Below, in pieces: positions 9,370 to 17,094 of a stretch of 21,663 nucleotides of DNA. Source of the DNA: Candidatus Latescibacterota bacterium (GTDB lineage Bacteria > Latescibacterota > UBA2968); contig JAYODI010000094.1 in assembly GCA_038279365.1 (NCBI GenBank), positions 1 through 21,663 of the forward strand, in the 5' to 3' direction. The stretch's first letter is position 1, and each line of letters opens with the position of its first letter. Under the pieces are notes generated by a model. It made no database searches, was not told the DNA's origin, and saw only the letters and a list, made by a program, of their open reading frames with translations. Made by a program: the position numbers and the translations under genes.

Positions 9370-9417
9370 AGTAAAAATCCACAGAAAGGGTCATTTTGTC
9401 TTCTGTGGATTTTTACT
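9370..9417. terminator. Perfect 17-bp inverted repeat (terminator or regulatory hairpin)
   Basis: AGTAAAAATCCACAGAA (9370-9386) and TTCTGTGGATTTTTACT (9401-9417), with a 14-nt loop. Confidence 0.7.
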
Positions 9418-9437
9418 ATTTATCTTTGAGGTTATGG

Positions 9438-11663
9438 ATGAAGCGTGAACGCTATTTGCAGGCGATAGAAACTTTATATAGAGAGCGTGGGACAGACGAT
9501 TCTCGGCTTCCAGGATGGACATCTCCGGCTGAGATTTTGTTGTATCAACAAACTGGAGAACGGGTATATCTCGATTCTGTATATCAACTTTTAAAAGTTA
9601 TTTTGGAAGATTATCAAAAAATAGGAGTGGTGCAACCCAAGTTGCGATTGACGGGTTTTAAGATTCCGTATCGAATTGTTTTGATGGCGCGTTTGTGTTT
9701 GGGGGAAGGTTTGCTTGAGGATGAGGAGGTGGCATTGCTCAAGCAATTTTTTACTGATTTGCTGTTGGAGGCCGAATATGAACGCGGTTCTATGAATCGG
9801 GCATTTGGGTTTTTGGCGGCGATTCATCCTGTTTTGGAATGGGTGCCAAACCATCCACGCAAAAAAGAACTGTTGGAAATTGAACAGATTGTTTTGGGTG
9901 ATTTGAAAAAGCATTACGAGGCCGATGAAGACAGTTATGGATATGGCGCATTAACGATGGTGAATTTGATCACTTGGTTGGAAGAATCGGAATTGGAAGA
10001 TTTGTATCGACACCCTAAAATGCGCCAATGTTTTGAGAACATTTTGGATATGTGGAGCGGTATTGGGCGGGCGTCTGTTTATGGCGATTGGCGGCCTACA
10101 GAACCGGCTTGGGGGTGGTATATTTGTGCTTTGGAAAAAGCGGCAACCGTGTATCAAGACGGTCGTTTTAAATGGATGGCGGGTGTTATTTTTGAAAATT
10201 ATCAAAAGACATTGCAGGAAACCCCCGATTGGTTTCACCCTCATGATTTGTATGGATTAACGCTTGCTTTTCAATGTGCCGACGACTCGGTTGTACCGGT
10301 GATGCCCAACAGCCATTCAAAGTTGATTTATCGCAACAATGGCCATGTGGAGCGTGCCATGTTGCGAGCGGGTTGGCAAGCAGGCGATTTGCTGGCAATG
10401 GTGAGTTTGGCTTCGGGCAATGAGCATGGGCACAGTGACCCTTTGGCAATTAATGGTTTGATTGGTGAAGGTGTGATTTTGGAAGACAATGGGCGTGCAG
10501 GTGTGGAACCCGCTTTTCACAATGTGCTACAGGTGACCGATGAGATCGAAGACTTTCCATTGCCACAGACCAGGGTACCAGATGGTCAATGGCAAACATT
10601 ACGGGCGTCTTTTGACAGTCAACGCAATTATGGTCGTTTTCGCCCAGAGGCTTCTTTCCCTTTTGATTATACGCACCAAGTTGGCAACGATATGCCACGT
10701 GCATTTGCATATGATCCAAAACGAGAGTGGGTATTTATTATTGGTTTGAAGGTTTATGACCAAGCCTATACGTTTGATTTGGGTGCTGTGACACTTATTG
10801 GCGATCGTTCACAACGGGTGATTACAGATTTTCAAAATCAGACATGGGTGGGGTTGTCTTCTGTAATAGATAAGGGTGAAGGACGGTCTATTGGTCGGTT
10901 TGAGGTGCATAAGACGGTTTCAGACAATCCTGCTAAAGAGGCGAGTGACTGGGCCACTACGGTTTATATTGGTGTCAAGTTTTCTGAGCCGTTTAGCATT
11001 GCTGCTGATGGTTTTCATTCTTTTGAAATGGATTATAAATTTTCGGGCACCACACCTGAAGATACCATTCATTTATTGTGTATGGGTGAAGCAGGCGGGT
11101 ATCCACGCAAGTGGATGTTTAATGAACTGCCGCATTATCCTGTGCAGGTGAAAACCTTTCAGGACAATCTTGATTTTACGCATGGTGTTTTTGATTATAC
11201 CGAAAAAAGTCTTTCTGGGCGCACCATTCACCGAAGCAGATCTCTTTTTTTTACCAAGCATTATAAGCACAACTTTTTGTGGGTTCGGGATCGGGTGTTT
11301 GTAGAAGATTTAGATACCTATATGGCTGCACCCTTGTGGCATGTGATGCATCCTGTTGATTTGGGTGATGGGTGGTTTGAAGTGCGTTATGAGGGGCGGG
11401 CACTCATTTGGTTGTTGCCCAAACCCAACAGCCATATCGTGACCAAAGCGTGGAAGGGGCTTGATGCTTTTCAGCGCGACCCTTATAATAGCCATGTGAT
11501 CTATTGTGGTAAGGTTTGTGATGGGGGCGAGGAAGAATGGTTCGAAACGCTTATTATTCCATTGGGGAATGAGGAAGATGGGAAAAAGGTGAAAGAGATG
11601 GTTCGGTTGACACCCGATAAACGGGTGTTGATGATTGGTTCAGAGAGACACGATTTGATGTGA
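9438..11663 (+). CDS. Hypothetical protein, heparinase II/III-like architecture
   Basis: GAGG SD before ATG 9438. Helical N-terminal half with YGD; LRAGW, GNEHGHSD and FHNVL resemble heparinase II/III C-terminal domain motifs; late HRSRSLFF..WVRDRV strand. No signal peptide. Confidence 0.55.
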   Translation: MKRERYLQAIETLYRERGTDDSRLPGWTSPAEILLYQQTGERVYLDSVYQLLKVILEDYQKIGVVQPKLRLTGFKIPYRIVLMARLCLGEGLLEDEEVALLKQFFTDLLLEAEYERGSMNRAFGFLAAIHPVLEWVPNHPRKKELLEIEQIVLGDLKKHYEADEDSYGYGALTMVNLITWLEESELEDLYRHPKMRQCFENILDMWSGIGRASVYGDWRPTEPAWGWYICALEKAATVYQDGRFKWMAGVIFENYQKTLQETPDWFHPHDLYGLTLAFQCADDSVVPVMPNSHSKLIYRNNGHVERAMLRAGWQAGDLLAMVSLASGNEHGHSDPLAINGLIGEGVILEDNGRAGVEPAFHNVLQVTDEIEDFPLPQTRVPDGQWQTLRASFDSQRNYGRFRPEASFPFDYTHQVGNDMPRAFAYDPKREWVFIIGLKVYDQAYTFDLGAVTLIGDRSQRVITDFQNQTWVGLSSVIDKGEGRSIGRFEVHKTVSDNPAKEASDWATTVYIGVKFSEPFSIAADGFHSFEMDYKFSGTTPEDTIHLLCMGEAGGYPRKWMFNELPHYPVQVKTFQDNLDFTHGVFDYTEKSLSGRTIHRSRSLFFTKHYKHNFLWVRDRVFVEDLDTYMAAPLWHVMHPVDLGDGWFEVRYEGRALIWLLPKPNSHIVTKAWKGLDAFQRDPYNSHVIYCGKVCDGGEEEWFETLIIPLGNEEDGKKVKEMVRLTPDKRVLMIGSERHDLM

Positions 11664-13935: not shown

Positions 13936-14166
13936 ATGAGTGAAGAACAACCCAATAACCCCATGCATGGGGTAACGCTTGAAAAGATATTGAACAGCTT
14001 GGTGGATTATTATGGCTGGGAGGAATTGGGCGAACGCATTCCGATTCGGTGTTTTAACTATGATCCGTCTATTAAATCGAGCCTTAAGTTTTTGAGAAAA
14101 ACGCCATGGGCAAGGAAAAAGGTGGAAGACTTATACCTTGTGATGCGAAAAATTACGGGAAAGTAA
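13936..14166 (+). CDS. DUF2132 / VF530-family small putative DNA-binding protein
   Basis: HGVTLE..LV..YGW..L...[25 protein letters not shown] signature; AAGGA SD. Confidence 0.9.
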
Positions 14167-14217: not shown

Positions 14218-15624
14218 TTAGATGTTGCTTGTGGACGTATGTTTTTCGCGGCGTTTTTGTAAGAGGTTTTGAATGCGTTGGTGGCGGGCATCGGTGAGTG
14301 GAAAAAAGATGAGGATGGTGCCTCCAATGAGGAAAAACAGGCCCACAACAGGGCCAAAGATCAGTGCGAGTTGAAAAGTAACCTCTGGCGATTGTAGGGT
14401 AGATGTTGGATCAAAACCAATGATATCGAGCAGGATGCCTGACAGAATGAGACCCAGTGCACGTGCGAGTTTGGTGGCCATTTTCCAAACGCCAAAGTAG
14501 AGGCCTTCGCGGTTTTGACGGGTTTTGAGCTCGTCGTGGTCAATGACATCGGGAATAAGGGCGTCGAGCAGGATAATGGCTCCTACAAAGAGCCCGCCAG
14601 GGATTGCGTAGAGCATGGGGTAGAGAATGTGCCCAGAGGGAAAAAGGGGATAGGCAAGGCTACCGCTGATGCCCAGTGCAAAAATGCCGCTGATGGCGGG
14701 CCATTTTTTGCCTTTTTTGCGAGAAAGGAATACCCAAAAAGGAATGGCGATGAGAAAGGCGATGAAAAAGGGAAAGAGGATTTTGCCAACGGTTTCTTGC
14801 TCTGTGAATAAGAGGCGATATTCGTAATAATAAAGGGCTGTGGACGCATTAAGTGTGCGGCCAATGGAGATGATGATAAAGGCCAATATAAGGGGGAGAA
14901 AATAAGGGTTTTTAAATGTAGTCCATTGTGCTTTGATGAGGTCACGCATGCGCGCGATGCGAATGGATTGGTCAGCGGGTTTGTCATGGCCGCGTGTGGC
15001 ACGTAGGGTGATGTATGCGGTGATGATGAGGGGAAGTGTGAGTACAAAACCGACCAAGTGGCGCGATTGGGCCACGTTTTCGGGGGTGTTGGTTTGCCCG
15101 ATGAGGCTGAGTATGATGGCAGGAAGCGTGAGGCCAAAGAGAGCACCTAAGGTGTCGAATCCGCGTTTGTAACCAAATATTTCGGTGCGTTCGTTGCGGT
15201 TGAAACTGAGTTCACCACCGAGTGCTGCGTGGGGAACGGAAATGACGGTTAGTGCGGTGTTGAGTAAGATATAGATGATGAGCAGATAAGCGAATTTGAA
15301 AAGATGGCTGTTTAAAAAGGGTGGGTTGAAGATGGCGGCTGTGAAAAATGCCAAGGCAATGGCACCGGGTAAAATGTAGGGCCGTCTTCTTCCTGCTTTG
15401 TGGCGTGTGCCATCGGAGATGCCGCCCATGATGGGGTCGCTGATGGCATCCCAAAAAATGGCAATGGCCAAGGCCAACCCTGTGTAGGCGGCTGGCATAC
15501 CCAAAACCACGTTGTAAAATTTGAGCAGATAGATTTGCAGCAAGGTTTCAACGGTGGCCAAACCGAGGTCGGTGGCGCTGTAGCCTGCTTTGACGCGCCA
15601 AGATAGGCGATGGGGTTGTGACAT
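14218..15624 (-). CDS. MFS transporter, GPH (MelB/glycoside-pentoside-hexuronide) family
   Basis: About 12 TM segments; WDAISDPIMGGISD, GRRRPYI, ERT and PDVIDHDELKT..REGLYFG motifs. Confidence 0.92.
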   Translation of the reverse strand: MSQPHRLSWRVKAGYSATDLGLATVETLLQIYLLKFYNVVLGMPAAYTGLALAIAIFWDAISDPIMGGISDGTRHKAGRRRPYILPGAIALAFFTAAIFNPPFLNSHLFKFAYLLIIYILLNTALTVISVPHAALGGELSFNRNERTEIFGYKRGFDTLGALFGLTLPAIILSLIGQTNTPENVAQSRHLVGFVLTLPLIITAYITLRATRGHDKPADQSIRIARMRDLIKAQWTTFKNPYFLPLILAFIIISIGRTLNASTALYYYEYRLLFTEQETVGKILFPFFIAFLIAIPFWVFLSRKKGKKWPAISGIFALGISGSLAYPLFPSGHILYPMLYAIPGGLFVGAIILLDALIPDVIDHDELKTRQNREGLYFGVWKMATKLARALGLILSGILLDIIGFDPTSTLQSPEVTFQLALIFGPVVGLFFLIGGTILIFFPLTDARHQRIQNLLQKRREKHTSTSNI

Positions 15625-15737
15625 GTTGGCTTTCTTGAGAAATTAGGATATACTATGGGGTAAATGTACGGATGAAGTGGTGTCTGACAAGGTTTGTGAC
15701 AGAGTGAAGCGCGATATTCTATAAAGGGGATCAACTT

Positions 15738-16403
15738 GTGAATCGTTTTTGGGGTGTGTGTTTGGTGTTGTTTTTAGGCGTGTCGAATGCTTTTGCAGAA
15801 GACGCAGAGCCAGATTCTGCGCAGGTGGCACCTCCTACGTTTTCGATGACGCCTACGTGAGTGGGCTGACCTGGTGAAGGTGCACCGCTCCGGGGGAGCG
15901 GGATTCAGACAAAGTGGACGTTTTCAGGACGGTTTGTGAATACAGCATTGGATCGGCCACGTTGGCGGTCAACGGCCAATTATCGGCTTCATCAAAGGCT
16001 TCAGGTCGGTGTTGAATATAACCCGCAGGCCAAAGAGATTGGGCCGTTGTTTTCTTTGTTTTTGTTTACAGAGACAGAAAAACGACCAGCGCTCTTTTTG
16101 GGCACCAGCTCAGATCGCATTGGTTCGCCTGCGGGCAAACAGTCTTATTTTGCAACGGCGAGCAAATATGTACCTGCTTTACATGCGTCATTTTATGCGA
16201 GCTTAAATTACTCGGAATGGGATGATGCGTTTAATGTGCCGTTTGGGATGACGTTGGAACTGGGCAAGGGGTTTTCGGTTCGTCCGATGTACGATGGTGA
16301 TCGGGGGCATTTGATGGTGAACTATTATGCTACCCAATATGGTGTGAGTTTGATGTATGTTTGGTTTGAAACGGCGGGTGTGTCCTTTTCTTTTGGATTT
16401 TAA
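15738..16403 (+). CDS. Putative exported selenoprotein with UxxU motif and beta-barrel-like C-terminal domain (221 aa with two TGA read-throughs)
   Basis: AAGGGGA SD then GTG 15738, in frame with track ORF 15936..16403. Signal peptide MNRFWGVCLVLFLGVSNAFA. In-frame TGA at 15858-15860 and 15867-15869 (T-U-V-G-U-P), a hairpin just downstream, and a C-terminal GVSFSFGF. Confidence 0.75.
15870..15908 (+). promoter_or_regulatory. Candidate bacterial SECIS element
   Basis: CCGCTCC-GGG-GGAGCGG stem-loop (15885-15901) with a G-rich apical loop; possible lower stem TGAA (15875-15878) / TTCA (15904-15907). The loop starts 23 nt after the second TGA and 32 nt after the first. Confidence 0.6.
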
Positions 16404-16416
16404 TTTGGAGAATAGC

Positions 16417-17094
16417 ATGAGATATATGGGTTTTTTATTGGTGATATTATTCGTGACTTCTGTGGTGGCACAAGAAAACAAGATACCTGAAAAAGCGTTG
16501 TGTTCTGTTTGCTCATTAAAAGGCGCAGGGCATGGGCCTGAAAAGGTTCGGGCCCATTCTGTGCATGAAGGTCAGGCGTATTATTTTTGTTCGGAAGGGT
16601 GTAAAAAAGAATTTGATGCGGATCCTGTGGCTTATTTGCCTCCCGTTTTTCCACGCCCAGCACCGGCATTTGCTGTTGAGACACTCACGGGTGAGAATGT
16701 GTCTTTAAAAGATTATGAAGGCAAACTGGTATTGGTAGACTTTTGGGCAACGTGGTGCAAACCTTGTATTGAGATGATGCCCAATTTGCAAAAGGTCTAT
16801 GATGCGTATTCGGATAAAGGATTGGTGGTTTTGGGCGTGTCGATTGATGAGCCAAAAGATCGGATCAAGAAAGTTGAGAAGTTTGTCGAAAAAGTGGGTG
16901 TGTCTTATCCCATTTTGGTGGATGCCAAACCGGTGCCTGCATGGCATATGTTTAAGGTGAAAGCGATACCCGCTCTGTTTTTGATTGATGGTGGTGGGCA
17001 AGTGGTGGCGCAGTGGACGGGGGAAATAGATCACAAAGAGATTGAAGCTGAGGTTGTGAGCCGAATAGGAATAAAAGCAAACAGCGCGCATTAA
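16417..17094 (+). CDS. Exported YHS-domain + TlpA-like thioredoxin fusion
   Basis: GGAG SD before ATG 16417; signal peptide (..SVVA/QE). CSVC...YYFCSEGCKKEFDADP..Y matches YHS; PAPAF, VDFWATWCKPC and AIP match TlpA/redoxin. Confidence 0.9.
   Translation: MRYMGFLLVILFVTSVVAQENKIPEKALCSVCSLKGAGHGPEKVRAHSVHEGQAYYFCSEGCKKEFDADPVAYLPPVFPRPAPAFAVETLTGENVSLKDYEGKLVLVDFWATWCKPCIEMMPNLQKVYDAYSDKGLVVLGVSIDEPKDRIKKVEKFVEKVGVSYPILVDAKPVPAWHMFKVKAIPALFLIDGGGQVVAQWTGEIDHKEIEAEVVSRIGIKANSAH

Follow-up and report, generated by a model that had tools for sequence, protein, structure and literature searches.

What might a pair of in-frame TGA codons do in the gene of a small barrel protein of the outer membrane, and why should an exported reductase be encoded directly behind it? 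The question is raised by a stretch of 21,663 nucleotides (nt) from Candidatus Latescibacterota bacterium (UBA2968), assembly GCA_038279365.1, contig JAYODI010000094.1, positions 1-21,663 of the forward strand, which was analysed as a whole and is called the window below. Two of its genes are the subject here: gene A, predicted to encode an exported β-barrel protein with two selenocysteine (Sec, U) residues, and gene B, predicted to encode an exported protein in which a YHS/TRASH-type domain is fused to a ResA/TlpA-type reductase domain. An earlier note on this DNA had proposed that both genes form an envelope module for redox or metal chemistry. The comparisons presented below argue that the module is real and conserved, and a role in soft-metal handling is put forward tentatively.

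When both TGAs (15858-15860 and 15867-15869, codons 41 and 44) are read through, one frame extends from the GTG at 15738 to the TAA that ends at 16403. Its translation carries the motif in the segment F-S-M-T-P-T-U-V-G-U-P-G-E-G-A-P-L-R-G-S-G and ends in F-S-F-G-F. A scan of one genome per species revealed 175 related loci, the best 80 of which were analysed (those numbered with L), while a search with the read-through protein yielded 985 candidates, of which 838 have an E value of up to 0.001; 120 of these are listed. TGA-x-x-TGA is present in frame in 79 of the 79 loci that span the region, within P-T-U-x-G-U-P-G-E-G-A-P-L-R-G-S-G; L028, where a contig end cuts the region off, was left out of this count. 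The metagenome-assembled genomes (MAGs) holding these loci are labelled Latescibacterota, Gemmatimonadota, Poribacteria, Eisenbacteria, Acidobacteriota, Calditrichia, Planctomycetota, and Deferribacteres. An in-frame start and a signal peptide are found in 77 of the 79. The exceptions are L023, where a TAA interrupts the signal peptide, the hairpin described below contains mismatches and the residues after it are altered (L023:5070-5150 and upstream), and L056, which has no start codon ahead of a signal-peptide-like stretch (upstream of 5103). Both could be pseudogenes or assembly errors.

In the alignment of 77 distinct sequences, both TGA columns are invariant, although the adjacent third codon positions vary. 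The hairpin that follows them, with a loop of GGG or GUG, is paired in 98.7% of the alignment cells. Three of its pairs have changed on both sides, with GC replaced by AU in 11 sequences and CG by UA in 26; no shuffle out of 500 attained as high a value, slid controls pair at 30-69%, and RNAalifold independently predicts the same helix. The compensatory changes sit on silent positions of Pro, Leu, Gly, and Ser codons, which is the pattern expected from selection on RNA structure within a coding region. The accepted window from the UGA to the loop of a bacterial Sec insertion sequence (SECIS) is 16-37 nt, and the distances from the two TGAs to the loop are 22 and 31 nt. L075 (5112-5192) has a different hairpin sequence, and A-P-V-G-G-A-G after the motif; six of its seven hairpin positions still pair, three of them via changes on both sides. 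No Rfam family matches the window at the gathering threshold, and with E up to 10 the surroundings of the TGAs give only chance-level matches or none. TGA also ends 4 of the 18 open reading frames (ORFs) of the window and 36 of the 77 homologous barrel genes; it is still a stop codon in these organisms.

Because the TGAs are conserved, the hairpin covaries, homologs with Cys at both positions exist (see below) and TGA otherwise remains an ordinary stop, we conclude on comparative grounds that each of the two TGAs is a selenocysteine codon and that a single SECIS element serves both. Gene A in fact combines the features by which selenoproteins are recognized, that is, a conserved in-frame UGA, a downstream stem-loop with a G in the apical loop, and Cys homologs. 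Other bacterial UxxU proteins have been tabulated and provide a precedent (PMC13188914 and PMC9312934). The frame, the UxxU motif, and the stop at 16403 are as the earlier note described them, and its reading of the TGAs as Sec was right. The argument it had added, that the thioredoxin-like neighbour independently supports this reading, is the weakest of all, since Poribacteria keep the UxxU motif without a partner nearby.

Two other readings of the TGAs have to be weighed. According to the first, they are ordinary stops, the real gene is a 155-residue frame that begins at GTG 15936, and the upstream frame is not translated. Public gene calls agree with this, as 117 of the 120 matches listed start after the TGAs (130-166 aa), under the database name 'hypothetical protein'. 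In addition, no selA, selB, selD, or tRNA-Sec gene lies within the 21.6-kb window, which holds no tRNA at all, a point that counts against Sec. Nevertheless, ordinary stops are very improbable and were rejected: a barrel without a signal peptide could not get to the outer membrane, the upstream frame is conserved as protein together with its signal peptide, the TGAs stay invariant beside varying silent sites and a covarying hairpin, and the Cys homologs are full length. The chance that TGA is instead read as tryptophan under a code-4-like reassignment (W-x-x-W), as three longer database records (P0006, P0038, and P0122) have it, is close to negligible, because the 75 N-terminal residues of P0122 and P0038 equal the translations of L060 and L071 save for W at TGA, so that the W comes from the code chosen by the gene caller on short contigs, because TGA ends genes in the window and in the barrel family, and because relatives have Cys at both positions (C-A-G-C) and not Trp.

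The product of gene A was modelled with AlphaFold2 on an alignment of 49 sequences in which Cys stood for Sec. The model has a mean predicted local distance difference test (pLDDT) score of 86.1 and a predicted template modelling score (pTM) of 0.76, and it shows about 12 strands in residues 60-220, with a pLDDT of 86-95 by block from residue 61 on. The segment around the UxxU motif shows no regular secondary structure. Among the Foldseek matches listed, almost all are transmembrane barrels, including FapF, designed 10- and 12-stranded barrels, KdgM, NanC, OEP21, and FadL, with template modelling scores (TM-scores) of 0.4-0.57. The signal peptide, the strands, and a nearly invariant C-terminal F221 are those of an outer-membrane β-barrel, and the model supports the view that the product is a small, channel-like barrel of about 12 strands. 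No Pfam family matches it at E up to 0.01, no NCBIfam model does, and a profile of the barrel family matches no PDB sequence. Conserved polar residues of the barrel are R65, R77, E93, D126, R127, D186, and H191. The positions invariant across the Sec and Cys clades comprise C/U41, R65, R77, G91, E93, P103, G122, D126, R127, T140, P168, G170, D186, G187, and H191, and on the strand map of the model most of the invariant polar residues are near one end of the barrel. The conserved polar residues probably face the lumen, which would give the barrel a charged interior.

Homologs with Cys in place of both Sec residues came from an exhaustive search of cluster representatives. The 177 proteins that it matched at E up to 0.001 include full-length ones with C-A-G-C (P0160, P0168, P0177, P0197, P0171, P0164, P0193, P0206, P0161, P0175, and P0219). 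In a tree of 47 rows, the Sec proteins form one group (94/87), the Cys proteins form a separate clade (100/99), and barrels lacking the motif lie outside both. When the barrel part of P0171 was searched among proteins of 226-720 aa, 48 matches were found, and in 46 of them a YHS domain, often with TRASH, is fused N-terminal to the C-A-G-C barrel; a thioredoxin domain was found in none of the 48. A smaller set gave the same YHS/TRASH fusion in 5 of 12 longer Cys-clade proteins. For the barrel of gene A, a single longer homolog was found (P0273), without a Pfam domain. With P0168 as a query, a cluster atlas returned only clusters named 'putative outer membrane protein with beta-barrel domain' or hypothetical, along with a weak lead to YjbH (14% of one cluster), on which nothing is built here; a tblastn search of plasmids with a Cys homolog gave no match.

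Two odd relatives deserve mention. The distant homolog P0137 reads P-A-C-V-G-W-P-G-E-G, with Cys in the first position and W in the second; this W may reflect a TGA translated with a different code, in which case the motif would be CxxU. P0269, of 3544 residues, is matched by barrel residues 58-105 in seven separate stretches (E 1.8e-6), and may be a repeat protein built of units resembling barrel hairpins.

The product of gene B shows the motifs CSVC (29-32), YYFCSEGC (55-62), and WCKPC (113-117). Its N-terminal part matches Pfam YHS with 7.3e-9 and 35.9 bits, over a cut-off of 30.3, together with a weak match to zf-FCS, while residues 81-211 match AhpC-TSA, Redoxin, and Thioredoxin. The top NCBIfam models are ResA (NF002854, 110 bits against a curated cut-off of 170) and TlpA (NF047696, 64 against 230); being under both cut-offs, the protein is a relative of both and neither of them proper. 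ResA 4nmu (PDB) matches the reductase domain by sequence (5.6e-24). In the structure model (pLDDT 90.8, pTM 0.82), the C-terminal domain superposes on ResA structures with TM-scores of 0.84-0.90 and a root-mean-square deviation of 1.6-2.2 Å. All six cysteines are invariant in 40 partner sequences, namely C29, C32, C58, and C62 and the two within D-F-W-A-T-W-C-x-P-C, as are the rest of that motif and the cis-proline P185. The thioredoxin fold, WCxxC, cis-proline, and signal peptide place the protein among the ResA/TlpA/CcmG extracytoplasmic reductases, and the Pfam match above cut-off with the invariant cysteines identifies its N-terminal part as a YHS/TRASH domain, predicted to bind metal.

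How firmly the two genes belong together could be assessed in 77 of the 80 loci, since the downstream sequence of L002, L060, and L071 is shorter than 150 bases. Of the 77, 53 have the partner gene next to the barrel gene, a count that tblastn reproduces. In 50 of these loci it is on the same strand and directly downstream, with an estimated gap of at most 66 nt, and GGAGG-type sites with gaps of 1-37 nt between the genes recur in most related loci. In the other three, the partner is within 2 kb: 235 nt downstream in L018, 1.8 kb downstream in L006, and immediately upstream in L077. A gene for a PhoX alkaline phosphatase separates barrel gene and partner in L006 (5808-7172), so that the pair is not always contiguous. 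Six tree rows from loci without partner or without an assessable flank (L034, L041, L048, L060, L070, and L071) constitute one well-supported clade nested in the Sec clade (98/96); L080, which has no partner either, groups apart from them, beside L078. The pattern fits a single separation or loss of the partner in a Poribacteria-type lineage. No terminator-like site was found between genes A and B, and the best explanation for the arrangement is that they form one predicted operon. Its promoter region is presumably held in the divergent region, where promoter-like hexamers on both strands show no excess (3 found, 2.4 expected in shuffled sequence).

Judged by these comparisons, genes A and B make up a genuine module that has been conserved. 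What constantly accompanies the (U/C)-x-x-(U/C) barrel is a YHS/TRASH domain, fused to it in the Cys clade and carried by the neighbouring gene in the Sec clade. The earlier note had made its proposal depend on a linkage of barrel homologs to YHS or thioredoxin genes, and this linkage is present in both forms; its claim of a barrel is supported by the model, every statement it made on the sequence of gene B (13 nt past gene A, own Shine-Dalgarno site, CSVC, YYFCSEGC, and WCKPC) holds, and the pair does start from a divergent region shared with a symporter gene of the major facilitator superfamily (MFS). The features are collected in Table 1.

Table 1. Features of the gene pair and its upstream flank, in window coordinates.
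Feature	Position	Strand	Details and evidence
MFS_2/GPH symporter gene	14218-15624	-	divergent to gene A
Divergent intergenic region, MFS_2 symporter gene (minus)/gene A	15625..15737	.	between the two genes
Gene A, predicted exported double-selenocysteine outer-membrane beta-barrel protein	15738..16403	+	221 aa, GTG start, TAA stop 16401-16403
Signal peptide of gene A, residues 1-20, ending AFA	15738..15797	+	read from sequence; predicted cleavage site
U-x-x-U motif (TGA, GTG, GGC, TGA)	15858..15869	+	both TGAs invariant in 77 distinct sequences
SECIS-like hairpin, 7-bp stem, GGG loop	15885..15901	+	starts 15 nt past the second TGA, 24 nt past the first
Beta-barrel domain of gene A, residues 60-221, ~12 strands	15915..16400	+	AlphaFold2 model, Foldseek, alignment
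Shine-Dalgarno GGAG of gene B	16407..16410	+	inside the 13-nt gap between genes A and B
Gene B, predicted exported YHS/TRASH-TlpA/ResA fusion protein	16417..17094	+	225 aa, ATG start, signal peptide
YHS/TRASH-type four-cysteine domain, residues 26-76 (C29, C32, C58, C62)	16492..16644	+	Pfam YHS
ResA/TlpA-type thioredoxin-fold reductase domain, residues 79-211, cis-Pro P185	16651..17049	+	Pfam, NCBIfam, PDB
WCKPC motif of gene B, residues 113-117	16753-16767	+	read from sequence

The reading that we favour, with a confidence a little short of even, is that the module works as a relay for a soft metal, probably copper, at the outer membrane, with the reductase keeping the diselenide reduced. Gene A would provide a barrel whose N-terminal arm carries the Sec pair (P-T-U-x-G-U-P-G-E), inserted at UGA by means of the single SECIS hairpin, and this arm may lie in the periplasm or in the barrel lumen. 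The WCxPC domain of gene B would keep the diselenide of the arm open as two selenolates, with electrons passing from gene B to the arm, and the YHS/TRASH domain would exchange a soft metal with the selenolate pair, Cu(I) being the most probable and Hg(II) or Ag(I) possible. Through its charged interior, the barrel would then pass or hold the metal at the outer membrane, in one direction or the other. A reductase in this role is suggested by the precedent of TlpA, which keeps the copper-ligand cysteines of CoxB and ScoI reduced (PMC6669012). For the remaining parts, one YHS domain has been described as a probable copper sensor (PMC4626032), a disordered metal-binding N-terminal region is required for copper efflux by the outer-membrane barrel PcoB (PMC12509749), and UxxU and UxxC forms of metal-binding proteins occur among the prokaryotic selenoproteins (PMC13188914). 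If the YHS/TRASH domain is the companion that the motif keeps even in the Cys clade, as the fusions show, that companion is a domain of the metal type. A diselenide is possibly harder to reduce than a disulfide, in which case a dedicated reductase in the Sec clade makes sense.

Several observations weigh against the metal relay, besides the lack of Sec genes in the window. The N-terminal arm (residues 21-59) is modelled with only moderate confidence (pLDDT 51-73). No partner lies within 5 kb in 24 loci, 22 labelled Poribacteria plus the unlabelled L070 and L080, so that the barrel may be able to function with no partner next to it. In the Cys-clade fusions, the YHS domain is present and a thioredoxin domain absent, which implies that a reductase is not universally required, and the four-cysteine domain of gene B could be a structural zinc site. 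Selenocysteine is also commoner as a catalytic residue than as a plain metal ligand. Concerning the neighbourhood, a Pfam scan of 50 of 65 flank ORFs (of the other 15, 10 came from Poribacteria-type loci, 3 had invalid coordinates, and 2 lay at contig edges) showed that genes for metal handling, including metal resistance and copper, for Sec, or for DsbD/CcdA do not recur beside the pair. The rest of the window is occupied by enzymes of polysaccharide catabolism.

Some of these observations are shared by the strongest competitor, a redox enzyme rather than a metal handler. According to this proposal, which we consider rather unlikely, the U-x-x-U arm is a catalytic diselenide/selenol centre anchored at the outer membrane. 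Its substrate would be an oxidant in the periplasm or outside the cell, such as a peroxide, a small disulfide, or a sulfenic acid, or it would serve thiol exchange across the envelope; the reductase domain of gene B would recycle the arm, and the YHS/TRASH domain would be a structural zinc site or a docking module. Most Sec pairs in UxxC/UxxU motifs do belong to thiol oxidoreductases (PMC2398784 and PMC13188914), the active site of the partner reductase is invariant, no metal genes are found nearby, and the retention of Sec in all 79 loci fits a catalytic need. What speaks against catalysis is that the domain fused to the barrel in the Cys clade is YHS/TRASH in 46 of the 48 proteins, never thioredoxin, that the arm shows no thioredoxin-like fold around the motif in the model of the gene A product, and that a conserved charged interior would be needless in a barrel serving as a plain anchor.

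A third possibility is chalcogen trafficking, in which species of sulfur, selenium, or tellurium, bound to the selenolate pair for instance as Se-Se-Se or Se-S adducts, would travel through the barrel, either to take up selenium or to export elemental forms, and gene B would reset the arm. The host organisms use selenocysteine and hence need selenium, a diselenide arm with a channel-sized barrel and a reductase partner could do such chemistry, and a connection between a porin-like outer-membrane protein and the reduction of selenite and tellurite has been reported in Geobacter (PMC5877670). Even so, we deem it improbable: no sulfur or selenium metabolism genes are indicated in the loci, YHS/TRASH domains are associated with transition metals (PMC4626032), and the Cys clade shows the system working without selenium in the motif.

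Metal relay, redox chemistry, and chalcogen transport meet in a more general formulation, possible if doubtful, in which the module is a novel type of device at the outer membrane: the diselenide/diselenolate arm of a channel-sized barrel is a movable carrier for a soft metal or a chalcogen, or a redox gate, for passage through the outer membrane, and is reset by a periplasmic protein that combines metal site and reductase. If true, selenium chemistry would here serve transport at the cell surface and not catalysis inside a thioredoxin-like fold.

Clustering of all ORFs of at least 100 aa across the loci yielded no third conserved gene. Reading of the ORFs around L034 gave a Gfo/Idh/MocA-type oxidoreductase and sigma-factor-like genes. 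In the window, no Pfam family matches, at E up to 1e-5, a 755-residue ORF (9396-11663, plus strand) that lies amid the genes for polysaccharide catabolism, and a small ORF (13936-14166, plus strand) matches the VF530 DNA-binding protein family (3.3e-36); the latter has no evident link to the pair, has an aldo-keto reductase gene directly upstream, and faces the MFS gene's end. The barrel tree is discordant with the phylum labels of the MAGs, as rows labelled Latescibacterota, Gemmatimonadota, Calditrichota, and Planctomycetota are intermixed over short branches (L003/L025, L007/L020, L010, and L027). Either the module moves between lineages or bins are mislabelled.

In the excerpts of the literature available, no description was found of a UxxU outer-membrane barrel or of its pairing with a YHS-TlpA protein, a listing under an uninformative name being possible. 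Most families named in the selenoprotein surveys, as far as these were accessible, carry NCBIfam or Pfam models, none of which matches gene A; some are represented in CDD only, which lay outside the scan. The pair is thus apparently an undescribed envelope system found in several bacterial phyla. Should the reading given here be correct, a widespread double-selenocysteine family (838 protein clusters with E up to 0.001 and 175 genome loci) joins the prokaryotic selenoproteome, its diselenide-forming motif is borne by an outer-membrane barrel and not by a soluble thioredoxin-like protein, and YHS/TRASH domains and orphan TlpA-like reductases gain a testable function in uncultured marine and sponge-associated phyla.

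Compared with known systems, the resemblance of gene A to FapF, KdgM, NanC, OEP21, and FadL, which are small 12-stranded or N-terminally plugged barrels (Foldseek E 3.7e-5 to 1e-2), is at the general level of barrels only, with an identity of 7-15%. Outer-membrane barrel selenoproteins are known, namely GSU2204 of the MtrB/PioB family and a FCYXU-type TonB-dependent receptor (PMC13188914); as far as the source describes them, they are much larger barrels than gene A, with one Sec each, and have no sequence match to it. There are also bacterial proteins with Sec pairs or Sec/Cys pairs in which Sec replaces a CxxC soft-metal site (PMC13188914 and PMC9312934). They differ from gene A in folds and locations, and none of those in the excerpts is an outer-membrane barrel. 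Membership of gene A in the HMA/MerP-type CxxC domains was rejected, given the absence of a Pfam match and a motif without regular secondary structure.

PcoB/CopB, like gene A, is a barrel with a flexible N-terminal region of metal ligands needed for function, encoded beside a periplasmic partner (PMC12509749). However, its ligands are rich in His and Met, in contrast to U-x-x-U, and the partner of PcoB is a multicopper oxidase. PcoB is not present among the Foldseek matches listed for the gene A product (ranks up to 50, with gaps), and gene A was rejected as a member of PcoB/CopB, having neither a Pfam family nor a match among PDB sequences. On the side of gene B, the closest parallel is TlpA with ScoI and CoxB in Bradyrhizobium diazoefficiens, where a periplasmic CxPC reductase reduces the metal-binding Cys pair of its partner before copper loading (PMC6669012). 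TlpA and the reductase domain of gene B belong to the same ResA/TlpA/CcmG superfamily. Unlike in the TlpA system, the reductase of gene B is presumed to act on a Sec pair carried by an outer-membrane barrel, and it is fused to a YHS/TRASH domain.

The nearest relatives of the module are the fusions of YHS/TRASH, CxxC, and barrel in Armatimonadota, which are named 'YHS domain-containing protein' or hypothetical. They share a homologous barrel (about 26-28% identity), export, and the association with YHS/TRASH, and they have P-T-C-A-G-C-A-G-E at the place where gene A has P-T-U-x-G-U-P-G-E. They differ in the use of Cys for Sec, in the fusion of YHS to the barrel, in the lack of a thioredoxin domain, and in forming the separate clade of the tree. 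For work in a laboratory host, expression of these naturally occurring fusions would be an easy starting point.

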